Virus record (IMG/VR): IMGVR_UViG_3300027851_000001
Coordinates: 1 to 59,658 of that record
Direction: 5' to 3' (one strand)
DNA: 59,658 nt
Source: a virus
Lineage: Duplodnaviria; Caudoviricetes
The position numbers and the translations under genes are program-made. The notes under the pieces were generated by a model. It was not told the origin of the DNA. It saw nothing but the letters and a program-made list of their open reading frames with translations, and searched no databases. Every line of letters starts with the position of its first letter. Position 1 is the stretch's first letter. Of this stretch, positions 128 through 56,345 are shown in pieces.

Positions 128-2540
128 TGTGGCGTGCGCGCACGAGGCTGGCCCGTTCGACCTGAAGGACTTGGCGCCGCTGAAGGCGTGGGGTGCGCAG
201 GCGGAGACAGCGAAGCCGGCCGTAGCGCTGGCACCCCGCAAGGCGTCCGGCGTCATGTCCGCGATGAGTAACAGCCGGGATGTGGACCTGAGCCTCGTAG
301 CGCAGAACTGCCAGCAGATCAGGGCGCTGCTGGACTCGGGTGGTGCGACTGATGCGATGGGCCGGCGGGTGGAGGAGCCGCTGTGGCGCCTGTCCATAGG
401 CTTGGCGAAACACTGCGTCGACGACCGCGCGTCCATCGTCATGATCGCCGGGCAGCACCCGGACTTCGACATGAACGCCAACACCGAAAAAATGGCGGCA
501 TGGGTGGGTGGGCCGCCGGTGTGCGCATCGTTCGAGTCGCAGTGCTCCGGCGGTTGCGACGGGTGCCCCAGCAAGGGGCGTGTCACCTCGCCGGCGGGGG
601 TCTCGTACACCAACACCCCACAGGTGCCCGCAGAGGTCGTTGCGGCGTCGAACGGGGGCCAGGGCATACCCACGGTGCCCTCAGGCGTATCGGTGCCTCC
701 GGGCGGCCCCCTGCTGCCCATGCCACCGGGTTACATGATGGGACAGGTAGCAAGGCCCCACCAGCACGTGGTGCGTGAGGAGGTGGACGACTCGGAGGAG
801 GGCGGCGGCATGAAGCAGGTCGCTGTGGCACCCTATGAGATGTACGTCACGGGTGTGTACTCGGACGCGCTGCGCAACCGCACCACGGCCATCTTGCTGG
901 TGCGTTTCCCGAACGACGGCTGGAAAGAGTTCGACATGCCGATCGACGTGCTGGCCACCGCTGGCAAGGAATTTCTCGTGTACATGCTCAGCAAACTGAT
1001 CATGCTCGACACGATCAACTCAGTGAATGAAGTGAGGAAATATCTCATGCGCTACATCGACTTCGTGCAACAGCAGGCACCCGTGGGCGCCGACTTCGAC
1101 GGCTTCGGCTGGCAGCCGGACGGCTCGTTCCTGTGCGGCCACCGCCTGCTGGGCTCTCCCACTGGCAACACCGTGCGCCGCCTGAGCGGCCCGGCCAAGC
1201 TGGTCGGCGACTCCATCATCACCGAGGGCGACCGGGGTGTGTTCGTGGACGCCATGCGCATGCTGGACGAGCCCTGTGCCAACAACGTGTCTGCTGCGGT
1301 GCTGCTGAGCACAGCGGGCATCCTCGGCAAGTACTCCGGCAACTCGTCGTTCCTCGTGTCGATCTACTCGACCGAGACCACCACCGGCAAGTCGCTGGCG
1401 CTGGCCGCGGTGAACAGCCTGATCGGGCGCCACCGCTCCCTGCTGCTGGGCCAGCGCGACACCGCCAACGCGGTGTACAAGATGCGCGGCGTGCTCAACC
1501 AGCTGCCGGCCACCATGGACGAGCTGACGCTGCAGGACGGCGAGGAGGCGGTGTCGCTGGCGTACAACCTGAGCCAGGGGCGCGAGAAGCTGGCCATGGA
1601 CCGCAACCGCGACATCCGCGACCCGGTGACGTGGGAGGGACCCACCATCATCACCACGAACCACTCGATGCACCAGAAGTTCGACGAGTTCATGTCGCAG
1701 GCCGACCCGGTCAAGGCCCGCACGCTGGAGTTGCACCAGCATGACCGCGAGTTCATCCAGGGCATGGACGGCAAGCGCGGCACGATCTTCTACCAGATGC
1801 TGGAGGACAACCACGGCTTCGCCTTCCCCGAGCTGATCGAAGCCATCGTCGCCTACGGCGGCGCGCGCAAGTTCTGGGAGACCGCAGAACAGCAGTTCGA
1901 GTCCCGCGTCGGGTTCACGTTCGAGCCGCAGGAGCGCTTCTACCGCTCGGCCATCATCAGCGGCTGGGCGATCGGCAAGCTGGGCAAGACCCTCGGCCTG
2001 TTCCCGTTCGATGTGGACCGTGTGACCGAGTACCTGTGCGATCAGGTCCGGGCCTACCGCAAGCGCGCCGCTGACTCCCGCGTGGACGCCTTCGACATCG
2101 TGGGCCAGTTCCTGTCGGAGCACAACGACCGCATCATCGTCTGCCGTGAGCAGTATGCCAGCGGCCCGGTGAAGAATCAGGAGCAGGTGCAGTTCCCGGT
2201 GCCCGAGCTGGCCGTGGCCCGCATGAAGGTGGTGTTCGACGGAACCAACCCGGTGATGCCGGGCAGCGTGCTGTCCCTGAACCAGATCACGTTCAAGAAA
2301 TGGCTTAGCCGATCGCGTGACAGTATCCAGCGGGTGTCGGACGAACTGCTCATGGCCGGCGCCCTGGTGGCTGAACGTGAGCGCGTGACGATGTACAAGG
2401 GCTGCCAGCGGGACAACCCGGGGCAGGCGTTCTGCATCACCATCAACCTGAACCATCCACGGTTCGTGGATGCGCTGACGTCACCCAAGGCTCGTATGCC
2501 GAGCCCGGTGACGTTGGCGGTGCTGGGGGGAACGAAATGA
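9..2540 (+). CDS. Primase-helicase C-terminal part (Cys cluster plus DUF927-like P-loop domain)
   Basis: CASFESQCSGGCDGC cluster; Walker A-like ETTTGKS; Walker B-like ATMDE; FGWQ motif typical of DUF927. Confidence 0.8.
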   Translation: MLKLALGEHGLDIDPSKVNDPSMVLRPVGTHHKKQTPWKDVACAHEAGPFDLKDLAPLKAWGAQAETAKPAVALAPRKASGVMSAMSNSRDVDLSLVAQNCQQIRALLDSGGATDAMGRRVEEPLWRLSIGLAKHCVDDRASIVMIAGQHPDFDMNANTEKMAAWVGGPPVCASFESQCSGGCDGCPSKGRVTSPAGVSYTNTPQVPAEVVAASNGGQGIPTVPSGVSVPPGGPLLPMPPGYMMGQVARPHQHVVREEVDDSEEGGGMKQVAVAPYEMYVTGVYSDALRNRTTAILLVRFPNDGWKEFDMPIDVLATAGKEFLVYMLSKLIMLDTINSVNEVRKYLMRYIDFVQQQAPVGADFDGFGWQPDGSFLCGHRLLGSPTGNTVRRLSGPAKLVGDSIITEGDRGVFVDAMRMLDEPCANNVSAAVLLSTAGILGKYSGNSSFLVSIYSTETTTGKSLALAAVNSLIGRHRSLLLGQRDTANAVYKMRGVLNQLPATMDELTLQDGEEAVSLAYNLSQGREKLAMDRNRDIRDPVTWEGPTIITTNHSMHQKFDEFMSQADPVKARTLELHQHDREFIQGMDGKRGTIFYQMLEDNHGFAFPELIEAIVAYGGARKFWETAEQQFESRVGFTFEPQERFYRSAIISGWAIGKLGKTLGLFPFDVDRVTEYLCDQVRAYRKRAADSRVDAFDIVGQFLSEHNDRIIVCREQYASGPVKNQEQVQFPVPELAVARMKVVFDGTNPVMPGSVLSLNQITFKKWLSRSRDSIQRVSDELLMAGALVAERERVTMYKGCQRDNPGQAFCITINLNHPRFVDALTSPKARMPSPVTLAVLGGTK

Positions 2541-2776
2541 ACCACATGCTCAAGATAGCCCCCGCATATTTCCAGGCGGTGCGGGACGGGCGCAAGACGT
2601 TCGAGATCCGCAAAAACGATCGCCACTTTGAGGAGGGGGATGGCGTAACCCTGCGCGAGTACGACGGGGGGTACACGGGGCGACTTCACGCCGCCACGAT
2701 TGGCTACGTCACCGCATACGAACAGCAGCCAGGGTACGTCGTGTTCTCGCTGCTGCTGGCGAAGGAGCCAACATGA
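2537..2776 (+). CDS. ASCH/DUF3850 domain protein
   Basis: LKIAPAYFQAVRDGRKTFEIRKNDRHFEEGD matches the ASCH GxKxxExR signature. Confidence 0.85.
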   Translation: MNHMLKIAPAYFQAVRDGRKTFEIRKNDRHFEEGDGVTLREYDGGYTGRLHAATIGYVTAYEQQPGYVVFSLLLAKEPT

Positions 2777-2928
2777 TCCGCTTCTACTTCCGCAAGGGCC
2801 GGTGGCGCGTGACGTCCACCACCAAGCAGGTGCCGGCCACGGAGTGGTGGAACGCCATCAACGCCGTGAAGTGCATGAACCATAGGCTGCGTACAGCGCG
2901 GCAGAACACCGCCGATGACCGGCTTTAG
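2773..2928 (+). CDS. Small hypothetical protein (51 aa) ending inside the attC-like site
   Basis: AGGAG RBS and ATGA overlap with the upstream gene; MIRFYFRKGRW...QNTADDRL. Confidence 0.55.
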   Translation: MIRFYFRKGRWRVTSTTKQVPATEWWNAINAVKCMNHRLRTARQNTADDRL

Positions 2929-2951
2929 TCCGGTCGATTTAAGAGTTGGGC
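2901..2951 (-). other. attC-like recombination site 1A
   Basis: Minus strand GCCCAAC-TCTTA-AAT(C)GACCGG(A)CTAAAG-CCGGTCATC-GGCGGT-GTTCTGC: R'', 5-nt spacer, L'' with extrahelical C, hairpin, L', R'. Confidence 0.75.
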
Positions 2952-2971
2952 TGATGCCCGGAAAGGAACCC

Positions 2972-3163
2972 ATGGGAAAAGTGCAAAGCGCTGTATGGCG
3001 CGATCTTTTCGACCCCGGATGGCGCGAGCGGGAGGCCGCCCTTGTTGCGAAGTTTTTGGCGCTCATACCAGCGCGCTGCGGCTGCCAACTTGGTACGTGC
3101 CAGAGCAAGCCGGACGGTTGCCGCATGCGCCAGGAAATCAAGCCGGGCAGCGGTGCGCAGTAG
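2972..3163 (+). CDS. Cassette gene, hypothetical protein (63 aa, Cys-rich C-terminus)
   Basis: AAAGGA RBS; the stop lies 2 nt before GCCCAAC of the next site. Confidence 0.6.
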   Translation: MGKVQSAVWRDLFDPGWREREAALVAKFLALIPARCGCQLGTCQSKPDGCRMRQEIKPGSGAQ

Positions 3164-3165
3164 TT

Positions 3166-3217
3166 GCCCAACACCACCAATGAGCCGCCTGCGGTCGGCT
3201 CGATTACAGAGTTGGGC
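3166..3217 (-). other. attC-like recombination site 1B
   Basis: Minus strand GCCCAAC-TCTGT-AAT(C)GAGCCG(A)CCGCAGG-CGGCTCATT-GGTGGT-GTTGGGC, with perfectly complementary R''/R'. Confidence 0.8.
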
Positions 3218-3236
3218 TGATGCCCTGGAGAACACG

Positions 3237-3536
3237 ATGGAAACACCAAAACCAATGGCTGGAACTTGGACGCTTACCGCACCAGATGGGCGAGAGTGGA
3301 AAGCAGAAACACCGCTTCGCTGTTGTGGGCTTGAGCAAAGAGAGCGAGTCCCCGCAGATGTTGCGCTAGCAAGAATTCTTGCTGCTGCAAAACTTGGTGC
3401 CGACGACAGAGATAGCGAACTATTGCAAGCCGCTCTCTATGCACTGGAATACCACACCGAACAAACGCGCCCGATCCAGTCAACCAATGATGCTATTGCC
3501 GCACTGCGCAAAAGGCTGCTGCCCAACACCAATTAG
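3237..3536 (+). CDS. Cassette gene, hypothetical protein (99 aa)
   Basis: GGAG RBS; visibly more AT-rich than core genes; ends ...LLPNTN inside the attI-like site. Confidence 0.7.
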   Translation: METPKPMAGTWTLTAPDGREWKAETPLRCCGLEQRERVPADVALARILAAAKLGADDRDSELLQAALYALEYHTEQTRPIQSTNDAIAALRKRLLPNTN

Positions 3537-3560
3537 GCGACGACGACCGTCGCGTAACAC
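3521..3560 (-). other. attI-like site of array 1
   Basis: Minus strand GTGTTACGCGACGGTCGTCGTCGCCTAATTGGT-GTTGGGC; 3525-3560 is 27/36 identical to 47809-47844; resembles the class 1 attI1 DR1-L-R layout. Confidence 0.6.
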
Positions 3561-3586
3561 CGGCACAAGCATTTACGCCCGACGGG

Positions 3587-3838
3587 CTATTTCATCCCCG
3601 CCGACTTCGTCCTAGCGAACGACCGGTTCTGCGACGCGGGCACAGCCCGTAGGTTCCCACCCCCGTTGCCGCCGCCCTTGACGATCGGCTTGCGGTGATC
3701 GACGTCGAGCCCGTCTCCTTTGCGGACGAGGCCCTTCTTCTCCATGGTGGCGCGCGCAGCGTTGCGGGCTGCACGATTCTTGATCTGCTCCGGCTTGCCA
3801 CCATAGTTCCGGTACTCATCTGCGTAATTTCTGGCCAT
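3587..3838 (-). CDS. Small HNH endonuclease
   Basis: DVDHRKPIVKGGGNGGGNLRAVPASQNR, an HNH beta-beta-alpha motif. Confidence 0.8.
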   Translation of the reverse strand: MARNYADEYRNYGGKPEQIKNRAARNAARATMEKKGLVRKGDGLDVDHRKPIVKGGGNGGGNLRAVPASQNRSFARTKSAGMK

Positions 3839-3839
3839 C

Positions 3840-6800
3840 TTACTCTCCACGTAGTTCACTGATTTCTTCCTGCATCCGCTTCAGCAGCTCGGTCTGCCGT
3901 TCGGCAAAACGCGCCCAATCCGGGCGCTCGTAGCGGGCCTCGGCGCGGCGCAGCCGGCCAATCTCCTGCTTGTACTCCGACATGATAGCCTTGGCCGCGC
4001 GGCTCTGGGCCACCACGGCTTGGTCCTCGTTGAACGAGTACACCTTCATGCCGAACCACTTGGCGACCTGCACCGCCTCGAAGCCCTCGGGCTTGTCCTT
4101 GCGCCCCTTTAGGATGTCGTCCACGCGTTCACCACGCATGAAGTCCACCACGGGGGGCGGCGCCACCTGGGCGGCGATCTCCCGGCCGCGCGTCAGGAAC
4201 TTCTCCCACATGGTGTCCGTGGGTGGCGACAGCGGCTTGGCGAAGTACGGGTCAACGCCGGCCACCGCGGTGATGATGGTCGACACCAGGGGGCCGGTGG
4301 GGGTGATGGCAGACGGGAACCACTCCTGCCCCATGAACCCGTTGGGCTGGCCGCGCGCCACCGAGGTCCACGGCAGGTAGTCGCCCAGGCGGTAGTACAC
4401 GGGGGACTTGTCGTCACCGAGGAACGGCAGGCGGATGTGCACGTAGGGACCCATGCCGAACATGCGGTCGCGGATGTACTCGGGCCCAGCCTTGCGCAGC
4501 CGCTCGTCCTCCTCATCCCCGCCAGCCATCTCCTGAAACGCATGTTCTAGGATGGCGAACGCCAGCATGATGTTGGCGATCTTCCACGGCTGGTGCACTG
4601 CGATCTTTCCCATGACCGGGATGATGGCGTAGGTCCACGAGATGAAGGGCAGCACCGTCTGGCGCGCCATGCGCACCGCCTTGGAGTCGATGTCGTAGTC
4701 GAGGAAGGCCCAGCGCGCGAAGTCGCCAGCAGCCTGCAGATCCTCGGCCGTCAGCTTGCCGTCGTGCAGGGCGGAGAGGTCGGCCGCGTGCTTCAGGAAG
4801 GCGGCCATGCGGAACACGTTGTCCTCGGCGGAGTACGCCTCGGTGATGATTTCATCCACCCGGCCACCGACGCCCTTGGCTTTGTCGACATGCTTCTGCA
4901 GTGCCTCGGACTTGGCCTTCTCCATTTTGGTCAGCGCCCCCAGGCGGCCCATGATCGTCGTGTCGCCCTCCAGCGACTCGCGCATGGCGTTGTACAGCGA
5001 CTGCTTGACCTCGGCCGAGGAGAAGTCGCCGATCATGGCGTTGGAGTTGATGAAGGCCAGCACCAGCTGGCGCTCGGCCGGCTTCATGGAGTTCGGACGG
5101 AGTTCGTACTGCGCCATAAGGCGCGCGGCTTCCTTCACGGTCGCCAGCGGAATGTCGTGCATCGTCGCCAGGGTGAAGTTGGTCGCCACGTTGGTCAGGT
5201 GGGTGCCGGGGTTGTAGACTGTCTTGGCTTTCTTGAACCAGCGCATGCCGGTGTTCAGCGAACGGAACGAGGTCGCCGGGCGGCGGTCGCTCATGTCCTG
5301 CATCGCCATCCACACGCCACTCCTGATCAGCTTGCCCTTGAGCGTGCCGTATGCGTCAGAGTCCGGCAGCTGCACCCACAGGTGCGGGGAGCGGTACAGG
5401 TGCTGGGTCTGCGTGCTGCGCGCGGCGTCGCTGCCGGCCTTGAGCACCAGCGCCGGGTCGATCTTGATCTTCAGCGAGTCCTCGGCATGGGCGATGCTGT
5501 CGAACGCCACGGCGTTGTCAGGGTGCCCGTCGCTGTGCCCGTATGTGGCCAGTGAGTCCGAGAACTGCTTGGACGCGAAGTTGTTAGCGAGCGCTGACAT
5601 CGTGTTGCGCAGCGCGTTGGACAGCTTCTCCGCCTGCTGGGCCTGCACCGCCTGCTTCACCGTCATCGACGCGCGGAAGGTGTGCTTGCCGTTGGCGAAG
5701 CTGGTGTGGAACCACACGTATTCCTGATCCACCATGTGGCCAGCGGGGGCTCCGACGCGGTCGAACTTTTCCGCGGCCATGAACCCATCGTGCGCCTTGT
5801 TGCCAGCGGCGTCCATGTGGAACACCTCGAAGTACTTGCCGTCCAGCACCGGGTCCCCCTGGGCGTCCAGCATCATCCACGAGGTCTCCAGATTTTCCTC
5901 GACCTGCTTTTTCTCGCCCAGCATGCTGTTGAGCTTGCGCAGGCCGAAGGTCTGGCCCGCCACCTGTTCCTCGGTGTTGGCGAACAGCATGGTCTCGGAG
6001 AACTTGCCGCTGGAGAAGAACCGCGACGCCTTCTCGTTGCCGAGCCGGGACACGTAGAAGTCGCGCCAGCGCACCACCTCGTCGGCCAGTTCGGCGGTAG
6101 CCTTGTCATCGCCCAGCGCCTGCTTGTCGCCGTCGAGGTAGTCGAAGATCGCCTGGATCTTGGCAGGGGACTGGCGCTGCACGAACGTGGCCAAGCGCTC
6201 GGTCAGCTTGTACCCTGCCTGCTTGTCGTCCTTGTACTGCTCGAACGCGGCGCGGGAGTCCACCGGCACGGCGAAGCGCGTGTTGACGTAGGTGAGCCAG
6301 CGGGCGATGCCGGGGAAGTCGTCGCGCACCTTCTCGGCCAGCTTGTCGGACTGCTCCAGCACTTTGTTGGCGCCGTACTTCCACCCCAGCGCGTCGAAGA
6401 TGAACTTCGTGCTGAGGAACGAGGGCAGGATTTTCTTGTTGTAGCGCGACACGTCGGTGTCGGAGGGCAGTTGCGCACCGGGGCGGGCCAGCAGTTCGGG
6501 AATGCTGCTCGTCGGGTCCATGCCGGACATGACCTCGGCCTTGAGGATGTTGCCCTTCCTTTTCCCTGGGGCGTCGATGCCGGGGGCAGCGGCCATCTCC
6601 AGCAGCGCCACGGTGCCGTCGAGCACATCGTTGGCCACGGTGTTGGAGACGCCGAGGAACTTCTGCACCAGTCGCGTGATGCGCAGCCAGATAGCGGACA
6701 ACCCGGACATGCCGGTGTCCTTCTCCTGCACGGTCTCCATGCCCTTGAGCGCCTTGCGGAACTCATACAGCGTGCTGCCGTAGGAGATCAGTTCGAGCAC

Positions 6801-50631: not shown

Positions 50632-50924
50632 GACTTGAAATACTCCGGGCCGAGAACGGCTATGTGATGGTGCTCAGCGACGACGCCACTGGGCGAGGGA
50701 AGCGTTTCATCGCCGACGACATCGCCAAGGTGGGAGAGCTTGTTGTGTCGCAGCTCGCCGCTGCCGAACTCGATCGCCAAGATTGGAAGGCCACGGCGGA
50801 CAAGTACGGCCCCGTCGAGGGCGTTGCAGCCAATATCCAGAAACCGCTGTGGCAGACCCCTATCCATGGGGCCGGCGCGCGGGATGACCCGTTGATGGTC
50901 GGTGGTTCCACCGGGGGTTACTGA
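50628..50924 (+). CDS. Hypothetical protein
   Basis: AAGGA RBS; EILRAENGYVM. Confidence 0.6.
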   Translation: MRLEILRAENGYVMVLSDDATGRGKRFIADDIAKVGELVVSQLAAAELDRQDWKATADKYGPVEGVAANIQKPLWQTPIHGAGARDDPLMVGGSTGGY

Positions 50925-53740
50925 TGCCAGATATTTATACGGTGGATTTTGAGTCGATGTACGACACCGACTACTCCCTGTCCAAGATGCAGACCGAGGC
51001 GTATGTGGAGGACGCCCGGTTCGAGACCATCGGCATGGGTATCGGTAAGAACGACGGCAACATCCACTGGTTCACTGAGCCCTCCGACATCACCCACGTG
51101 CTGGACCGCATCAACTGGGACAACTGTGCTGTGCGCGCGCACAACACCCACTTCGACGGGCTGATCCTCTCGCACCGGTACGGCAAGAACCCGGCGCAGT
51201 GGCGCGACACCCTGGCCAGCGGACGCATGATGCGACCCCACTACCGCCAGCACTCGCTGGGCTACATGGCCAAGGCGCTCGGCCTCCCGGACAAGGGCAA
51301 TGAGGTGATCGCTGCCAAGGGCAAACGCCGCGCGGACTTCACGCCGGCCGAGCTGCACGCCTACGGGGAGTACTGTAAGCTGGACACGGCCCTGTGCCGC
51401 ACCATCGGCGACATCTTCGACCCCTACACGCCGGCGCTGTACGAGTACCTGATCGACATGACGGTGCGCATGTTCACGGAGCCCGCGCTGGTGGGCAACC
51501 GGCAGAAGATGCAGGAGTTGTACCAAGCCGAGCTGGACCGCAAGGCGCGCCTGCTGCTGGACGCATCCGTGGACCGCTCGATCATCATGTCGGGCGACAA
51601 GCTGGCCCGCGCGCTGCTGGACCTGGGTGTGGTGGCGCCGCGCAAGGTGAGCCCCAAGACAGGTAAGGAAACATGGGCGTTCGCCAAGACCGACAAGGTG
51701 TTCTGCGACCTGCTGGAGCACGAGGACCCACAGGTGCAGGCACTGGTCGCCGCGCGACTGGGTGTGAAGTCCACCATTGCCGAGACGAGGGCGAAAACTT
51801 ACGCGGAGATGACGGACCGTGGCCCGCTGCGTGTGTTCCTGTCGATGTGGGGCGCCAAGACCACGGGAAGATATTCAGGAACCAACAAGGCGAACTGGCA
51901 GAACCTTCCGGCCCGTGGCCCGGCCGCCGGCCTGCGTGAAGCCATCTGCGCGCCGGTAGGGCACCAGCTGGTGGTGGGCGATTCGTCGAACATCGAGCTA
52001 CGTACTGTCATGTGCTTGGCGGGGCAGTGGGACGTGGTTGAGAAGATCCGCAACGGGGTGGACCTGTACTGCGACTTCGCCTCGCGCCTGTTCGGCCGCA
52101 CCATCACCAAGGCAGACAAGGCCGAGCGGCAGCTGGGCAAGGTCGCGTGCATCGCCGAGGGGCAACTGGTGCTTACGGACAAGGGCCTCGTCCCTATAGA
52201 AGAAATAACGCTGTCCCATTCAGTATGGGATGGGGTAGACTTCGTTCACCACGACGGTGTGGTGTTCAAGGGGGTGCGCGATGTCATCGAATACGACGGG
52301 ATCACGGCAACAGCAGACCATGTCGTTTGCCTGGAGAACGGTGCGTGGTGCAAGCTCGGCGACGCCGCCGGTGCGGGTGCGCGAGTCGCTACAACCGAAC
52401 GAGGTGGGGCGCCGGTTTGGTTCATGGGTTGTGCAATCTACGGAGCTGCGCGAGATGCGCGCGAAGGTGGATTGCCTGTGCGACTGCGGGCGGCGGACGT
52501 GGGTCGGGTTGGAGAGCCTGCTGAACGGAACATCGACACGATGCAAGGGCTGCGCTACGACGGCGCGGCACGCGCGGGACGGGGAGCTGCTGCACGCGAC
52601 TCCGTTGGTGGCGGCGTTGGCACGGCGGGCGCAGGCCATGCGGGCTCGTTGCACACAGCCACAGAATCCGCGATGGGAGTCGTACGGAGGGCGAGGGATA
52701 GAGTTTCGGTTCTCGTCCGTGAAGGAGTGCGTGGAGCACTTGCTCACGCTTCCCGGGTGTTCTATGGAGCTGGAAGTGGATCGACGGGAGAACGCTGGGC
52801 ACTACGAGCATGGGAATCTTCGCTTCGTCACGCGGGTGGAGCAGCAAGCGAACCGGAGAAATACGGCGCGGGTGCAGACCTCCGGTGGCCCAGTGCCGCT
52901 GGTGGATTGGCCCAGCCCGTACAGCCCTGGGCGCACGTACATCTACGCGGTGAAGCTGGACATGCCAGCCGAGGCGATCATTCGGCGGGCACAAACAGCC
53001 GTGGCAGAGAAACGGAAGAACTGGCGGGGGCTGCGAGACCGGCTGGCCGCGCTCGGGTATACGACATAGTCAACGCGGGCCCTCGGCACCGGTTCACCGT
53101 GTCCGGCAAGCTGGTCCACAACTGCCTGTCGCTCCAATATGGGGCGGGTGCCCCCCGCTTCCAAGAAATGGTCAGGATGGAGTCGACGCGGAACCCCGAC
53201 ATGAAGCCGATTTCTATAGAACGGGCAATGGAAGTGGTCGCGCTGTACCGTCAGATTCACCACAAGGTGGTCGACCTGTGGAACTACTGCAACGACGTTG
53301 TGCTTCCCGCCATCGCCCGCGGCGACTTCGGCCGCAACGTGGACGTCAACGGCTGGTTCATCGTGCAGAACGAAGGCTTCGGCCGCCCGGGTGAGCCCGG
53401 CGTCATGTACCATGACCTGCGCTACGACGCCAAGGAACGCGAGTGGACGTACCAGATGGGCAATGAGCGCGTGCGCATATTCGGGCCGAAATTGGTGGAG
53501 AATCTTTCCCAGCACGCTGCTATGATCATAGTCATGTGGCAGACCGCACGGATCAACACCAAGTTCCCGGTGAAGCTGTCGGTGCACGACGAGGCCGTCA
53601 CGGTTCCGGAGGACGCGCGGGTGGCCGAGGCCAAGGCATACGTGCTGGAGTGCCTGTCGCTGGCGCCAGTGTGGTGCCGCGGTGTGATACCCGTGGCGGG
53701 GGAGGTCGGGGTTGGAACAACGTATGCAGGAGCGAAATAA
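50924..53740 (+). CDS. Family A DNA polymerase with an intein
   Basis: Exo motifs VDFES, AHNTHFD, YCKLD; motif A GDSSNIELR; motif B RQLGKVA/CLSLQYG; motif C VHDEAV. Confidence 0.92.
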   Translation: MPDIYTVDFESMYDTDYSLSKMQTEAYVEDARFETIGMGIGKNDGNIHWFTEPSDITHVLDRINWDNCAVRAHNTHFDGLILSHRYGKNPAQWRDTLASGRMMRPHYRQHSLGYMAKALGLPDKGNEVIAAKGKRRADFTPAELHAYGEYCKLDTALCRTIGDIFDPYTPALYEYLIDMTVRMFTEPALVGNRQKMQELYQAELDRKARLLLDASVDRSIIMSGDKLARALLDLGVVAPRKVSPKTGKETWAFAKTDKVFCDLLEHEDPQVQALVAARLGVKSTIAETRAKTYAEMTDRGPLRVFLSMWGAKTTGRYSGTNKANWQNLPARGPAAGLREAICAPVGHQLVVGDSSNIELRTVMCLAGQWDVVEKIRNGVDLYCDFASRLFGRTITKADKAERQLGKVACIAEGQLVLTDKGLVPIEEITLSHSVWDGVDFVHHDGVVFKGVRDVIEYDGITATADHVVCLENGAWCKLGDAAGAGARVATTERGGAPVWFMGCAIYGAARDAREGGLPVRLRAADVGRVGEPAERNIDTMQGLRYDGAARAGRGAAARDSVGGGVGTAGAGHAGSLHTATESAMGVVRRARDRVSVLVREGVRGALAHASRVFYGAGSGSTGERWALRAWESSLRHAGGAASEPEKYGAGADLRWPSAAGGLAQPVQPWAHVHLRGEAGHASRGDHSAGTNSRGRETEELAGAARPAGRARVYDIVNAGPRHRFTVSGKLVHNCLSLQYGAGAPRFQEMVRMESTRNPDMKPISIERAMEVVALYRQIHHKVVDLWNYCNDVVLPAIARGDFGRNVDVNGWFIVQNEGFGRPGEPGVMYHDLRYDAKEREWTYQMGNERVRIFGPKLVENLSQHAAMIIVMWQTARINTKFPVKLSVHDEAVTVPEDARVAEAKAYVLECLSLAPVWCRGVIPVAGEVGVGTTYAGAK
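52148..53122 (+). mobile_element. Intein (325 aa) in polymerase motif B
   Basis: Block A CIAEGQLV, block B ATADH, block F VYDIVN, block G KLVHN followed by an extein Cys. Confidence 0.92.
52341..53069 (+). CDS. HNH homing endonuclease nested in the intein in the +1 frame (start uncertain)
   Basis: GRRFGSWVV...CLCDCG...RCKGC; YGGRGI...EVDRRENAGHYEHGNLRFVTRVEQQANRR; GGAG at 52333 precedes GTG 52341. Confidence 0.8.
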   Translation: MRGASSATPPVRVRESLQPNEVGRRFGSWVVQSTELREMRAKVDCLCDCGRRTWVGLESLLNGTSTRCKGCATTARHARDGELLHATPLVAALARRAQAMRARCTQPQNPRWESYGGRGIEFRFSSVKECVEHLLTLPGCSMELEVDRRENAGHYEHGNLRFVTRVEQQANRRNTARVQTSGGPVPLVDWPSPYSPGRTYIYAVKLDMPAEAIIRRAQTAVAEKRKNWRGLRDRLAALGYTT

Positions 53741-53741
53741 T

Positions 53742-54482
53742 ATGACCGCCAACCCACAACGGGTTATTCCCATCATGCCGCTGTCGTACAGCCGGCTGTC
53801 CGTGTTTGAGCAGTGCGAGGCGCGCTTCGACTACCAGTACGTGTCCAAGCGGGTGCAGGACTCCATGAACGAGGCGTCGGCCTACGGGGACCGGGTGCAT
53901 AAAACGTTGGAAGCGTTGGGCAACGCCGGAAAGCAGGGGCCAGAGGCAGTCGAACGCCTGAAGTCCGAGCGGACATCGGCTGAGGAACTGCAGACCATCA
54001 CCCGCTGGGGCCCACTCGTGGAGCGCATCCTGGCGCAGCCCGGGGAGAAACTGTTTGAGTTTCAGATGGCAGTCAACAAGGCCCTGCAGCCCGTGGGTTG
54101 GTTCGCCAAAGATGTGTGGGTGCGGTCGATCGCCGACGTGTTAGTACGTGATGGGGATACTGCCTACGTCCTAGATTTCAAAAGCGGCAAGGTCAAGGAC
54201 AATCCGACGCAGCTTCAGCTTTTCGCCGCCATGGTTCTGTGGCATTATCCAGAGGTGCAGAAGGTCAAGACGTCGTTCGTCTGGCTGGCGCACAACGAAG
54301 TTACGAATTCACATTACGAGCGCCGGTTTCTGGGCGCGCTCTGGCGCGCGCTGGAGCCCCGGTTTTTGCGCGTGCAGGAGACGATCGAGCTGGGCGTGTT
54401 CAAGACGAAGCCGTCAGGCCTCTGTGGTTGGTGCCCAGCCAGTCAGATCTGCCCGGACGCTCGTCCACCGAGAAGGAAATGA
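53742..54482 (+). CDS. PD-(D/E)XK Cas4/RecB-like exonuclease
   Basis: LSYSRL..FEQC, GDRVH, IADVL, LDFKSGK, QLQLF, CGWCPASQIC. Confidence 0.85.
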   Translation: MTANPQRVIPIMPLSYSRLSVFEQCEARFDYQYVSKRVQDSMNEASAYGDRVHKTLEALGNAGKQGPEAVERLKSERTSAEELQTITRWGPLVERILAQPGEKLFEFQMAVNKALQPVGWFAKDVWVRSIADVLVRDGDTAYVLDFKSGKVKDNPTQLQLFAAMVLWHYPEVQKVKTSFVWLAHNEVTNSHYERRFLGALWRALEPRFLRVQETIELGVFKTKPSGLCGWCPASQICPDARPPRRK

Positions 54483-54483
54483 G

Positions 54484-54807
54484 ATGGAAATGCACTCCGA
54501 AGCGGATGTGAAGAAAGCGGTCAAGTCCGTGTTCTCCAAGGTGTCGGTGCAGTACCCCAACAAGCTGTGGTTCTTCATGCCGCCCGCCAACGGCTACGGC
54601 CGCAGTGGTATCCCCGACTTCCTCGGGGTGTTCAACGGGAGGGCGTTCGCCGTGGAGACCAAGTTCGGCGCCGGCAAGGTGACGGCGCACCAGATGCGCG
54701 AAATCGAGGGGCTGACGCAGGCGGGCACACAGTGCTGGGTTGTGCGTGAGGCGTCGTTCGACGGCTTCGAGCTGGAGTTCCAAGGATGGGCGGCCCTATG
54801 CTCGTGA
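54484..54807 (+). CDS. VRR-NUC nuclease (resolvase-like)
   Basis: SEADV...GRSGIPDFL...AVETK...TAHQ. Confidence 0.85.
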   Translation: MEMHSEADVKKAVKSVFSKVSVQYPNKLWFFMPPANGYGRSGIPDFLGVFNGRAFAVETKFGAGKVTAHQMREIEGLTQAGTQCWVVREASFDGFELEFQGWAALCS

Positions 54808-56345
54808 TCCCTGAGAAGCGCCGCCTGATCATCGACACGACCGAACCCAAGACCATCACCACGGTGATTCCCCATGCCCGCACGATGGAGCACGAAGGCC
54901 GCACACTGGTGGCCGTGCCCTACGGGGTTGACGAGTCACTGGTGCTGCACAACCTCGGCTACAGCGTGCCGGCACCCATCCTGCACTACTACAGCTGGCC
55001 CGGGCGGTTCGCGCCCATGGACCATCAGAGGGATACGGCAGCGTTTTGTACGACGCATAAGCGGGCGCTGGTGCTCAACGCGCCAGGGAGTGGCAAGTCG
55101 ATCAGCGTGCTCTGGGCTGCCGACCACCTGCTGGAGGAGGGCATCGCCAAGCGCGTGCTGATCGTTGCGCCGCTGTCCACCGTGAAGGTTGTGTGGGGGC
55201 GGGAGATCAAGCACCACTTCTCGCACCGCTCGTTCGTGCTGTGCACGGGCTCCCGGGCCCGGCGCATGGAGTTGCTGAAACGCCCCGGCGTGCAGTACGT
55301 GGTGATCAACCACGACGGCTTCAGCACCATGGCGTCCGAACTGAACGACTTCGACGTGGTGATCTACGACGAGGCCACAGCCCTGAAAACGCCCGGCTCG
55401 CGCAGGTACAAGATCTTCGCCAAGTGGATGGACAAGTACCAGCCGTGGCTGTGGATGCTGACCGGCACGCCGATCTCGCAGACCCCCGCTGACGCGTGGA
55501 CGCTGGCCCGGCTGGCGAACTCGCCGATCGTGCCCAAGAGCTACACCACATTCAAGGACATGGTGATGCAGAAGGTGAGCCAGTTCCGGTGGATACCACG
55601 GCCAGACGCGCTAGTGACATGCCAGAAGGTGCTGCAGCCCTCCATCCGGTTCTCCCTGGACGAGTGCAAGGACCTGCCACAGACCAACTTCGTCGGCCGC
55701 AAGGCGGAGATGACACCGCAGCAGACCAAGGCGTTCAAGGAGATGCAGGACAAGGCAGTGACGGTGTTTTCGCACGGGCAGGTGACGGCGGCCAACGCGG
55801 CGGTGGCGCTCAGCAAGCTGCTGCAGATCATCTGCGGCGTGGTGTACGGCGACAACGGCACGTTTGCCATCGACGCCTCGGAGCGGTACAATGTACTCAC
55901 TGAACTGATTGACGAGATAGGCGACAAGGTGATCATCTTCGTGCCGTTGCGCGGGGTGCAGGATTGGCTGGAGCAGGCGCTCAATGCGTCCGGCTACACG
56001 GTAGGCAGCGTGCACGGCGATGTGGGCACCACGGCGCGGAACAAGATCTTCGAGGATTTCCAGCACACGGACCAGCCGCGCATTCTGCTGGCCCACCCGA
56101 AGGTGGCGGCACACGGGCTGACGCTGACGAGAGCCAAGGACATCATCTGGTACGCACCGATTTTCTCCCTCGAAATGTATGAACAAGCCTGCGCTCGCGT
56201 TCGTCGGTTGTCCACGGTGGGACGTACAACCGTGTGGCACATCTGGTCGACACCGTTCGAGGCTGAGCTGTACCGCAGGCTCCGCACGAAGCAAGCAACT
56301 CTCGCGGCCTTTCTTGAACTTGTTAACGGAATCAACGAGGACTGA
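54798..56345 (+). CDS. SNF2-family helicase
   Basis: APGSGKS, IYDEAT, LTGTP, AHGLTL, QACARVRR. Confidence 0.9.
   Translation: MLVIPEKRRLIIDTTEPKTITTVIPHARTMEHEGRTLVAVPYGVDESLVLHNLGYSVPAPILHYYSWPGRFAPMDHQRDTAAFCTTHKRALVLNAPGSGKSISVLWAADHLLEEGIAKRVLIVAPLSTVKVVWGREIKHHFSHRSFVLCTGSRARRMELLKRPGVQYVVINHDGFSTMASELNDFDVVIYDEATALKTPGSRRYKIFAKWMDKYQPWLWMLTGTPISQTPADAWTLARLANSPIVPKSYTTFKDMVMQKVSQFRWIPRPDALVTCQKVLQPSIRFSLDECKDLPQTNFVGRKAEMTPQQTKAFKEMQDKAVTVFSHGQVTAANAAVALSKLLQIICGVVYGDNGTFAIDASERYNVLTELIDEIGDKVIIFVPLRGVQDWLEQALNASGYTVGSVHGDVGTTARNKIFEDFQHTDQPRILLAHPKVAAHGLTLTRAKDIIWYAPIFSLEMYEQACARVRRLSTVGRTTVWHIWSTPFEAELYRRLRTKQATLAAFLELVNGINED

Follow-up and report, generated by a model that had tools for sequence, protein, structure and literature searches.

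The DNA analysed here, referred to as the window, is the complete 59.7-kb genome of a phage (59,658 nucleotides). A family-A DNA polymerase is encoded in a single open reading frame of 938 aa (50924-53740) interrupted in motif B by an intein, with the junctions GKVA/C...HN/CLSLQYG. The N-extein contains the exonuclease DFES motif and motif A (DSSNIE) and its last residues, ...ERQLGKVA, lie in motif B. Across the middle of the intein the +1 frame is also open and encodes a putative nuclease. No match to the region was found in phage records by blastn, and a search of viral contigs with the whole polymerase found nothing. The features of the locus are as follows.

50924-52147, plus strand: N-extein of the family-A DNA polymerase (Pfam DNA_pol_A, E=1.3e-13; phrog_17, E=3.6e-42)
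52148-53122, plus strand: class-1 intein of 325 aa, from Cys1 to His-Asn and followed by Cys+1, with blocks conserved in alignments A2 and A5
52148-52462, plus strand: N-terminal splicing domain, intein aa 1-105, with blocks A and B (TADH); pLDDT 95-98 over aa 1-90
52268-52274, plus strand: Shine-Dalgarno-like AAGGGGG, 6 nt before ATG 52281, in the intein K-G-V codons
52281-53069, plus strand: nested +1-frame gene for the putative nuclease, 262 aa plus TAG (PHROG HNH families; AF2 pLDDT 91.3)
52463-53035, plus strand: intein-frame linker, aa 106-296, stop-free, 49% Gly/Ala/Arg, unconserved and predicted to be disordered
52473-52553, plus strand: Cys cluster of the nuclease (C65, C67, C69 ... 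C88, C91), a probable zinc module
52779-52853, plus strand: predicted beta-beta-alpha core of the nuclease, D167-R168 to N191 (DRRENAGHYEHGNLRFVTRVEQQAN), from alignment A3 and the model
53036-53122, plus strand: C-terminal splicing domain, aa 297-325, with blocks F and G (VYDIVNAGPRHRFTVSGKLVHN); pLDDT 96-97
53123-53740, plus strand: C-extein including the stop codon, starting with CLSLQYGAG (remainder of motif B) and containing motif C (VHDEA)

The intein frame

The intein begins with the Cys at 52148 (CIAEGQLVLTDKG...) and ends with ...KLVHN at 53122, and both C1 and N325 are invariant across 55 sequences. Invariant columns of the N-terminal domain are C1, T10, G13, D28, G29, H35, T55 and H58; in the C-terminal domain, with block F as VYDIVNAGPRHRF, D306, G311 and N325 are invariant and Y305, N309, R315, F316 and T317 nearly invariant. 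The AF2 model adopts a mini-intein fold, for which Foldseek returned two chains only at E<=0.001, both from the Npu DnaE intein (4kl5_A, 7.2e-4; 4kl5_B, 9.0e-4), and the lower matches listed were inteins or related Hint/BIL domains, for example the RecA and DnaB mini-inteins. The sequence-only reading, which had placed all splicing blocks in this frame, is borne out by the class-1 termini, TADH, blocks F and G and the modelled Hint fold. We infer protein splicing from the intact catalytic residues and the intact polymerase motifs A and C.

The two folded ends are joined by a linker of ~190 aa (about aa 100-295) that was modelled at pLDDT 39-53 without secondary structure. Its content of Gly, Ala and Arg is nearly twice that of the exteins (25%), and alignments of relatives revealed no conserved columns within it. 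The Pfam search of the intein frame returned no nuclease, the sole listing being a sub-threshold match to Hint_2, in agreement with the earlier description of a Gly/Ala/Arg-rich middle devoid of a nuclease. No in-frame LAGLIDADG domain is present, judged from this Pfam result and the predicted disorder. The intein-frame reading of the nuclease DNA is, judged from conservation and the model, an apparently disordered and unconserved by-product.

The putative nested nuclease

The maximal +1 open reading frame extends from 52257 to 53069, encoding 270 aa from the first GTG (52257), and its TAG (53067-53069) falls within the VYDIV codons of block F where the stop had been placed previously. The motifs named in the sequence-only reading (DCLCDCG, YGGRGI and DRRENAGHYEHGNLRF) were all located in this frame. 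The HMM search proposed at that time identified HNH families, with phrog_374 'HNH endonuclease' at E=8.1e-25 and three further nuclease families, including phrog_3377 and phrog_2081. Homologs numbered 42,389 at E<=1e-3, the best of which shares 54% identity along its whole length and begins at the homologous Met. No match to Pfam or NCBIfam was obtained with the window nuclease, and one of six nuclease relatives reached Pfam HNH_3 weakly (E=0.095). Structure prediction of both frames, also suggested earlier, gave a confidently modelled nuclease and an intein with folded ends and a disordered linker.

In alignment A3, comprising 62 sequences, the Cys cluster has one invariant member, C67, and three nearly invariant ones, C69, C88 and C91, consistent with a probable zinc module that would bind zinc. 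Residues R168, Y175, N179 and N191 of the core are invariant in A3, and D167, N171, G178 and R181 nearly invariant. The modelled core consists of strands 165-168 and 180-183 and helix 185-190, on which the conserved polar residues R168, Y175, N179 and N191 are located. The canonical first His of HNH nucleases at the end of the first strand is absent, the position being taken by the Asp-Arg pair D167-R168. The restriction enzyme PacI (PDB 3LDY/3M7K) aligned with the same DR, the nuclease core corresponding to the PacI motif VDRSD...Y..N.R, and was the only PDB profile match, with an alignment covering the Cys motif and VDR..Y..N.R....N. PacI was the top match in each search, although weakly so, with similarity below significance in the profile search (E=0.83) and E=0.62 with Foldseek, which returned nothing from the PDB at E<=0.001 for the nuclease model; two VIA-align comparisons yielded PacI alone, with Z=5.4 and an rmsd of 3.1 over 77-78 residues. 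PacI is an enzyme of 142 aa that lacks the extra N- and C-terminal domains of the window nuclease. Assignment as a putative nuclease rests on the PHROG names together with the weak similarity to PacI. The description of an HNH gene overprinted on the intein has to be reversed in direction; judged from its homologs, the nuclease appears to be the old and conserved gene of the overlapping pair, and the intein-frame reading is the unconserved one.

Start site of the nested gene

The likely start of the nested gene is ATG 52281, a position homologous to those at which relatives start; the first residues are MSS[SN]T in P0001 and P0002, its closest homologs, and MSSNTT in the window protein. The upstream AAGGGGG gave a duplex energy of -11.8 kcal/mol with a generic anti-Shine-Dalgarno motif. 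In a set of 70 distinct inteins, the ATG that comes first after the final +1-frame stop is +1 codon 49 in 48 cases and codon 45 in six, one of them the window, and 44 inteins carry a +1-frame stop 2-3 codons ahead of that ATG. Motifs equivalent to AAGGGGG are present in relatives, and the duplex energy was <= -7 kcal/mol in 45 of 69 inteins versus 7.3% of 2762 control out-of-frame ATGs; as these motifs coincide with codons conserved in the intein (K-G-V or K-E-V), part of this conservation may stem from the intein protein. Where the ATG has moved to codon 45, in the window and in locus L005, the Shine-Dalgarno motif has moved along. ATG 52281 fits better than the GGAG/GTG start at 52333-52343 suggested in the sequence-only reading, of which GTG 52341 is possible but without a counterpart in relatives. 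The sequencing runs containing the stretch included no RNA run.

Open frames and frame-specific selection

Stop codons across the intein DNA number none in frame 0, four in the +1 frame (all outside 52257-53066) and four in the +2 frame. When synonymous codons were shuffled with the +1 protein fixed, the intein frame stayed open in 0.75% of 2000 shuffles, and the converse shuffle with the intein protein fixed left the +1 frame open in 0.30%. The same shuffles with relatives left the other frame open in 0/2000 for the low-GC phages L001 and L002, in either direction, and in fractions <=0.008 for L003-L005. The third frame of these loci carries 15-31 stops over the length of the intein, or 20 in L003. 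These results show that the dual open frames are non-random; the earlier observation that both frames remain open for more than 700 nt was correct and exceeds chance in the shuffles.

Selection was examined per frame, a check that the sequence-only reading had recommended. The 22 listed substitutions inside 52281-53066 include 15 at nuclease codon position 3, and 16 of them are synonymous in the nuclease frame versus five in the intein frame, indicating purifying selection on the nuclease frame; a further 11 substitutions are unlisted in the comparison. Differences between L001 and L010 at intein codon positions 1, 2 and 3 numbered 24, 7 and 2 in the middle and 2, 1 and 9 in the N-domain. Read in the nuclease frame, the middles of L001 and L002 share 63% identity, and read in the intein frame 34%; substitutions in the N-terminal splicing domain of relatives gather at intein codon position 3. 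These comparisons show that selection switches between frames along the element.

Relatives and known systems

The nuclease was found in the +1 frame, with an intact ORF, in 79 of 80 related IMG/VR loci, and an in-frame nuclease in 0/80 loci and 0/120 related polymerases; the 80 loci are those that scored best against the intein frame of the window itself, so the sample favours +1 layouts. The +1 layout was also found in Streptococcus Javan phages and Gardnerella phage AB1 and, at a second insertion site, in APSE-1 and Shewanella SFCi1; two phages of a sister subgroup have a +2 layout. In Ruminococcus phage NatCom_29429 (an intein of 140 aa) and in Javan422 the motif-B site holds a mini-intein lacking the nuclease, and the middle of the intein is dispensable. 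The out-of-frame layout is the rule within this polymerase intein family. The sequence-only reading had called it rare rather than unprecedented; a precedent exists in a 2025 preprint, and the claim of rarity does not hold for this family.

That preprint (Gosselin, Arsenault & Gogarten, bioRxiv 10.1101/2025.01.02.630785) describes, in its available portion, inteins of actinobacteriophages whose endonucleases are encoded in a different frame or on the opposite strand, in accordance with the cases mentioned in the sequence-only reading, although the endonucleases there are of other types: endonuclease VII-like in frame 3, and antisense LAGLIDADG and VSR-like. The HNH cases in that portion are in frame, and the supplementary tables may hold further cases. 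It proposes that a free-standing endonuclease gene invaded an intein. As in the window, the endonuclease ORF is located between the splicing blocks, out of the intein frame, and the in-frame reading lacks recognisable structure. The present element differs in its endonuclease gene, a PacI-like member of the HNH family placed at +1 within the motif-B intein of a family-A polymerase, in its spread far beyond actinophages and in the conserved Shine-Dalgarno motif and ATG. An out-of-frame ORF of this kind is also on record for APSE-1, whose nested ORF P46 is annotated in RefSeq as 'HNH endonuclease', but only from 2931, the open frame starting at GTG 2703. The intein of the APSE-1 P45 DNA polymerase (NC_000935) resembles that of the window in being a family-A polymerase intein of the same clade (N-domain 47.7% identical) and in encoding at +1 a nuclease from the same family, and differs in its insertion site, YGGKS/C...HN/CENICQAAARD. 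For the APSE intein, the accessible part of Rouil et al. 2020 (PMC7313666) mentions only differential loss. The literature searched yielded no account of an out-of-frame HNH gene within a family-A polymerase intein.

Several other systems share parts of this organization. The ShiLan domain, an HNH hidden out of frame within a DNA methylase of phages (Arsenault et al. 2025, PMC11855218), is as far as the available text describes it likewise nested in an open host frame, with the in-frame reading forming a loop; it has no intein splicing domain and the insert stays in the host protein, whereas splicing blocks flank the nested gene in the window. In the fractured genes with split inteins reported in the part of Dassa et al. 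2009 (PMC2677866) considered here, a free-standing endonuclease gene between the halves is likewise a separate ORF within the intein locus; there the host gene consists of two ORFs rejoined by trans-splicing, and in the window one polypeptide reads through the endonuclease gene. In canonical inteins (for example PI-SceI, 1LWS) endonuclease-coding DNA also interrupts the Hint domain between blocks B and F, but encodes, in frame, a LAGLIDADG or HNH domain that forms part of the intein polypeptide, where the window has only a disordered linker. PMC5418858 was rejected as a precedent, as it deals only with free-standing HNH genes and a nested Rz/Rz1 pair.

Proposed element and alternative explanations

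The core of the sequence-only reading, a polymerase intein with an HNH-type nuclease in its +1 frame, stands on the relatives, the frame-specific selection and the two folds. Very probably, the family-A polymerase gene is interrupted in motif B by a selfish element composed of two overlapping genes. In the polymerase frame, a class-1 intein with folded halves of ~105 and ~29 aa would be joined by the ~190-aa disordered linker, which need only be stop-free and flexible for protein splicing to restore the polymerase. In the +1 frame, an independent gene from ATG 52281 to TAG 53069 would encode a protein whose PacI-like beta-beta-alpha nuclease core is preceded by a Cys-cluster/beta-barrel N-domain and followed by a helical domain at the C-terminus. 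Translation of this gene would most likely start from a Shine-Dalgarno site of its own within the codons of the intein N-domain. The nuclease probably cuts intein-free polymerase alleles at or near the motif-B codons, and repair would then copy the whole unit into the cut alleles. We infer translation of the nested gene, activity and target of the nuclease, splicing and current mobility.

An arrangement of this kind could be mimicked if two compensating indels in a metagenome assembly, which the window is, masked an ordinary in-frame HNH intein, the more so as high-GC DNA holds alternative frames open more readily than low-GC DNA. Contigs from two studies other than that of the window were compared for such errors, the refuting outcome named in the sequence-only reading: the X2 contig covers 52213-53329 with 41 substitutions and the X5 contigs cover 52110-53027 in three pieces with 22 substitutions, with 0 gaps in either case. 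The identical layout occurs in sequenced isolates as well as in the 79 related loci, and the 120 related polymerases contain no in-frame nuclease; the artefact is effectively refuted already. Group I introns bearing HNH genes reportedly occur in phage DNA polymerase genes, and the insert might be such an intron with the polymerase frame open incidentally. This can be given next to no weight, as a search of 51800-53500 gave no Rfam match at E<=1, blocks A, B, F and G of the intein show conservation and form a Hint fold in the model, and frame 0 is open in 80/80 loci, a condition of parsing for 48 of them.

With the two-gene element retained, expression and present mobility allow further alternatives. 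The nuclease might be made by a programmed +1 ribosomal frameshift, also raised in the sequence-only reading, to give a fusion of N-extein, N-intein and nuclease, and the +1 frame is indeed open from 52239 such that a shift anywhere from 52239 to ~52400 would reach the nuclease domain. No evidence points to this route and it is very improbable: the +1 stop just ahead of the conserved ATG and its Shine-Dalgarno-like motif in 44 of the 70 relatives, the joint shift of motif and ATG to codon 45 and the start assigned to homologs by gene callers at the homologous Met all favour an internal start, and a conserved slippery motif was not noticed, albeit without a systematic scan. Somewhat less improbable, yet still unlikely, is that homing has ended here and that the intact nested ORF is a relic or serves another phage function, inherited vertically with the polymerase. 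In accordance with this, nuclease identity tracks extein identity (Spearman 0.80), nuclease-free mini-inteins indicate that degeneration does occur, and among 60 loci no pair combined a nuclease identity of >=85% with an extein identity of <=60%; with no near-identical element in divergent exteins, that sample shows no recent transfer. Against it are the purifying selection on the nuclease frame in the window's lineage, the intact ORF in 79 of 80 loci, the conserved start signals and an intein-free allele co-occurring in run X1, where a 63-nt contig (depth 18.3 vs 31.7) joins the N-extein directly to codons read as A-M-L-S-L-Q-Y-G-A. The motif-B site is also uninterrupted in APSE-1. Presence of the element is sporadic, with intein-free alleles at the same site, as for a homing endonuclease. 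Compared with the window, splicing domains of relatives are 53-59%, nucleases 40-43% and exteins 24-37% identical, and the greater likeness of the element than of the exteins suggests past transfer.

Implications

It is somewhat probable that the homing endonuclease of a widespread clade of family-A polymerase inteins has been handed over for good to an overlapping gene equipped with a ribosome-binding site of its own. Gene callers report a single gene for any one stretch, and the nuclease is therefore unannotated in most records examined, including those of the Javan phages, Gardnerella AB1, EBPR siphovirus 2 and Shewanella SFCi1; surveys would score such elements as inteins with degraded or unknown endonucleases. 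In practical terms, the family offers mini-inteins that tolerate a linker of ~190 residues and compact predicted nucleases that probably recognise a highly conserved polymerase motif. For the evolution of overlapping genes, the element offers a clean natural system: selection passes from frame 0 to the +1 frame and back to frame 0 within 975 nt, with ~190 codons of frame 0 constrained only against stops. If the proposal is true, the intein-frame reading of the nuclease gene is a linker under selection solely to stay free of stops, a natural example in which hundreds of codons are held open purely as a spacer, and the pair is a stable two-gene selfish element rather than a transient accident. 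It would then be living support for intein-endonuclease partnerships that start when a free-standing endonuclease gene invades a mini-intein, and would bear on the origin of inteins, with splicing first and endonuclease invasion later, and on why expression of the endonuclease might uncouple from the host protein.

Architecture of the polymerase gene

The record is a complete virus of 59,658 bp bounded by direct terminal repeats. Its family-A DNA polymerase retains the exonuclease motif DFES, motif A (DSSNIE) and motif C (VHDEA), and motif B is interrupted (ERQLGKVA / CIAEGQLVLTDKG ... GKLVHN / CLSLQYGAG). The relevant features are as follows.

50924-53740, family-A DNA polymerase ORF, 938 aa (Pfam DNA_pol_A, E=1.3e-13; phrog_17, E=3.6e-42)
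52148-53122, intein insert in the polymerase frame, 325 aa (Cys1; TADH in block B; VYDIVNAGPRHRF in block F; His-Asn then Cys)
52281-53069, nested nuclease gene in the +1 frame, ATG to TAG

A sequence-only reading had described a polymerase intein overprinted by an endonuclease; its coordinates for the intein and the open +1 frame were correct, and all of the nuclease motifs that it named lie in the +1 frame, which is open from GTG 52257 to TAG 53069. The isolates closest to the N-extein, approximately 36% identical, were Pseudomonas phage Rollin and the Rhizobium phages RHph_TM. In the latter (TM3_14A, TM27A, TM27B and TM29; matches H42-H45) a single match carries both annotations, 'DNA polymerase I protein' and 'hypothetical protein', and the Rollin match comprises 401 aa over 1476 nt; the polymerase genes of these phages may contain splits or insertions. 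Located 3' of the polymerase (53712-56345) are ORFs of 256, 127 and 519 aa that, by eye from their translations, resemble a PD-(D/E)XK-type nuclease, a small nuclease and an SNF2-type helicase.

Structure prediction agreed with the splicing blocks and the Gly/Ala/Arg-rich middle lacking a nuclease motif that had been read from the intein frame. The model, built on a 55-sequence alignment of the same loci, had pLDDT values of 95-98 for residues 1-90 and 96-97 for residues 297-325, and resembled the Npu DnaE, Mtu RecA and Ssp DnaB mini-inteins (4kl5, E=7.2e-4). The middle, from about residue 100 to 295, was without secondary structure at pLDDT 39-53, and Gly, Ala and Arg made up 49% of the linker between the splicing domains compared with 25% of the exteins.

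Identity of the +1 product

The +1 product had 42,389 homologs at E<=1e-3, 4,350 at 1e-10 and 16 at 1e-30 in a library of 1.84 billion proteins, the top homolog being 54% identical over the full length. The earlier assignment to a phage HNH nuclease held in PHROG, with matches to phrog_374 'HNH endonuclease' (E=8.1e-25) and to phrog_3377, phrog_2081 and phrog_8790 'restriction endonuclease', but not in Pfam or NCBIfam, neither of which returned a family for the protein. The sole PDB profile match was a weak one to PacI (E=0.83) in which the Cys motif and a VDR..Y..N.R....N core were aligned. In the AlphaFold2 model based on a 62-sequence alignment (mean pLDDT 91.3), an N-terminal beta domain that bears the Cys cluster and a helical domain at the C-terminus flank a core containing strands 165-168 and 180-183 plus helix 185-190. 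Residues C67, C124, G139, R168, Y175, N179 and N191 were invariant in that alignment, and those nearly invariant included C69, C88, C91 and D167. Foldseek returned no match to the model at E<=0.001, and the top VIA-align match was again PacI (Z 5.4, rmsd 3.1 over 77-78 residues), weak by the notes of the tool. An Arg occupies the position of the first His of canonical HNH proteins. The PHROG names thus overstate the certainty of the class, and the protein is assigned with moderate confidence to the HNH (beta-beta-alpha) superfamily as a PacI-like member. Residues 38-86, containing the Cys cluster (window positions about 52392-52538), weakly matched small beta-barrels of the Tudor/KOW/CarD type (Z 2.5-3.6). 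Judged from the model, the Cys-cluster domain may be a DNA-recognition module.

Distribution of the layout in relatives

The best phage tblastn matches of the +1 product fell within DNA polymerase genes. Searching IMG/VR with the intein alignment yielded 299 candidate stretches and 243 relatives, of which the best 80 were analyzed. A nuclease-HMM match was present in frame +1 of 79 of these, with E values from 5.9e-8 (a 133-aa remnant) to 1e-87, in a sample ranked by likeness to the whole intein frame of the window and therefore favoring +1 layouts; the remaining locus had a 60-aa partial match. Frame 0, frame +2 and the antisense strand gave no match among these best 80 of 243 loci. Independently, the 120 top-ranked polymerase proteins with an intein, whether long (about 305-326 aa) or mini (about 120-173 aa), contained no in-frame match to the nuclease HMM. 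With the window and three GenBank loci included, the 82 loci represent 70 distinct intein sequences, L015 and L029 being duplicates of L004 and L005.

Other arrangements were found in further members. EBPR siphovirus 2 (2352-3224) has a homologous nuclease in frame +2 of a divergent intein subgroup (CFGAD... / CFTRD...) at motif B; Vibrio phage 97.13, with an intein of the same subgroup at this site followed by Ser rather than Cys, has a nested nuclease ORF at 2578-3324 in frame +2 of its polymerase gene (557-4051). In APSE-1 (2501-3418) and Shewanella phage SFCi1 a related intein lies elsewhere in the polymerase, at a second site near YGG(K/R)...QA..(R/A)D; here too the nuclease is in +1, and the two insertion points are approximately three residues apart. 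The nested ORF of APSE-1 is annotated as P46, 'HNH endonuclease', with a RefSeq CDS beginning at 2931; the open frame with nuclease homology begins upstream at GTG 2703. Mini-inteins of 133-155 aa also occur at the motif-B site (L008, L012 and L083). That of Ruminococcus phage NatCom_29429 (L008, 2501-2920) is 140 aa long and without nuclease, and those of Javan422 (L012) and L083 retain a remnant of the nuclease 5' part. Since mini-inteins without nuclease occur at the same site, the nuclease-coding segment is dispensable for the insert as such.

Many members (L016, L018, L021, L022, L031, L040, L090 and others) end in Ser-Asn, Ala-Asn, Gly-Asn or Leu-Asn rather than His-Asn, some then followed by Ser, and span very different polymerase clades (RKVAKT/C..., RFMGKT/C... 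and DKSQVE/C...).

Maintenance of two open frames

Over the intein DNA there were no stops in frame 0, four in frame +1, all outside the nested ORF, and four in frame +2. Opening by chance was evaluated with 2000 synonymous shuffles: the intein frame was open in 0.75% when the +1 protein was held, and the +1 frame in 0.30% when the intein-frame protein was held. Streptococcus phage Javan113 and its relatives and Gardnerella phage vB_Gva_AB1, which are of low GC content (43-45%), share the intein and its insertion site, with a nuclease ORF of 257-267 aa in +1 and 16-31 stops in the third frame; there, both frames were open in 0 of 2000 shuffles in either test. Compensating indel errors, which according to the sequence-only reading could have displaced an in-frame HNH, were not seen in contigs from other studies, since these contigs differ from the window by substitutions with no gaps. 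The contig of run X2 covered 52213-53329 with 41 differences, and three pieces from run X5 covered 52110-53027 with 22; no insertions or deletions over the region were listed in any of four runs. Run X1 was left out of the independent runs as it may be the source sample.

Within 52281-53066, 15 of the 22 substitutions listed for the window lineage (11 more exist beyond these) fell at nuclease codon position 3, and 16 were synonymous in the nuclease frame compared with 5 in the intein frame; for the middle part the values were 13/17 and 2/17. The pattern was also evident among relatives with gapless 309-aa inteins. Differences between L001 and L002 at intein positions 1/2/3 numbered 13/7/29 in the first 144 nt, mainly at position 3, and 114/64/50 in nt 256-855, mainly at position 1, which is nuclease position 3; L001 and L010 gave 24/7/2 over the latter interval. 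Over the middle region L001 and L002 shared 63% identity when read as nuclease and 34% when read as intein, and in the final 58 nt the pattern returned to the intein frame. The codon-position and synonymy patterns indicate that in the middle of the element the nuclease is the constrained gene and the intein-frame linker is merely held open.

Probable expression of the nested gene

In the window AAGGGGG (52268-52274) lies 6 nt 5' of ATG 52281, and the N-terminus encoded there, MSSNTT, corresponds to MSS[SN]T... in the closest nuclease homologs (P0001 and P0002). The start in L002 is AAGGAGG-N9-ATG, and SD-like motifs precede those in L001 (AGAGAGG), L004 (AAGGAAG) and L005 (AAAGGAG); where the ATG is four codons earlier, as in the window and L005, the motif also lies earlier. 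Among the 70 distinct elements a stop occurs at +1 codon 46 or 47 in 44. Once past their last +1 stop, 48 of the elements have the first ATG at +1 codon 49 and 6 have it at codon 45. Predicted pairing with a generic anti-SD was <= -7 kcal/mol in 45 of 69 elements (median -7.2) compared with 7.3% of 2762 control out-of-frame ATGs from the same loci (median -2.8). The intein protein contributes to conservation of these motifs because they sit in conserved K-G-V or K-E-V codons. The sequence-only reading had proposed expression from an internal GGAG/GTG at 52333-52343 or by a +1 frameshift. The former is a possible start but is without counterpart in the relatives, and a frameshift fusion is not needed to make the nuclease. 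The conserved ATG, stop and SD-like motifs point to internal initiation as the best-supported route, the nuclease probably being translated from its own ATG 52281 behind AAGGGGG.

Mobility

A 63-nt contig from run X1 fuses 52108-52146 directly to 24 letters reading ...A-M-L-S-L-Q-Y-G-A in the polymerase frame, at a depth of 18.3 compared with 31.7 for the intein-bearing contig. The contig represents a close relative from the same run whose allele lacks the intein, with Met at the Cys+1 of the window and different synonymous codons downstream. A second C-extein variant in X1 (53240-53353, 10 differences, depth 15.5) is probably from the same strain as this allele. Differential loss of the APSE polymerase intein has been described (Rouil et al. 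2020, PMC7313666).

Identity of relatives to the window was 53-59% for the splicing domain, 40-43% for the nuclease and 24-37% for the flanking exteins; the higher identity of the element would fit past horizontal spread. Nuclease and extein identities were correlated (Spearman 0.80) and no locus pairs combined a near-identical element with divergent exteins, results that speak against recent spread.

Relation to known systems

Inteins with an out-of-frame endonuclease are an already known category. The actinophage inteins described in a preprint (Gosselin, Arsenault, Gogarten, bioRxiv 10.1101/2025.01.02.630785) include endonuclease VII-like enzymes in frame 3 and LAGLIDADG and VSR-like enzymes in antisense; its HNH cases are in frame only, unlike the HNH-type nuclease in +1 of the window. 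Invasion of inteins by free-standing endonuclease genes is proposed there. An out-of-frame HNH is likewise described in a methylase, although that host has no intein (Arsenault et al. 2025, PMC11855218), and free-standing endonuclease genes that separate the two halves of split inteins have been reported (Dassa et al. 2009, PMC2677866). In the literature searched, no family-A polymerase intein was described as carrying an out-of-frame HNH. That literature also gave no report of this endonuclease type combined with this host gene over such a breadth, of the conserved start signals or of the complete lack of in-frame members.

Overall, the element is a real, selected overlapping-gene pair that forms one selfish element, and the two-gene architecture is near-certain. 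The proposed functions are well motivated: the nuclease would be translated independently and, as a putative homing enzyme, would cut the intein-free motif-B allele, and the intein is predicted to splice out of the polymerase precursor.
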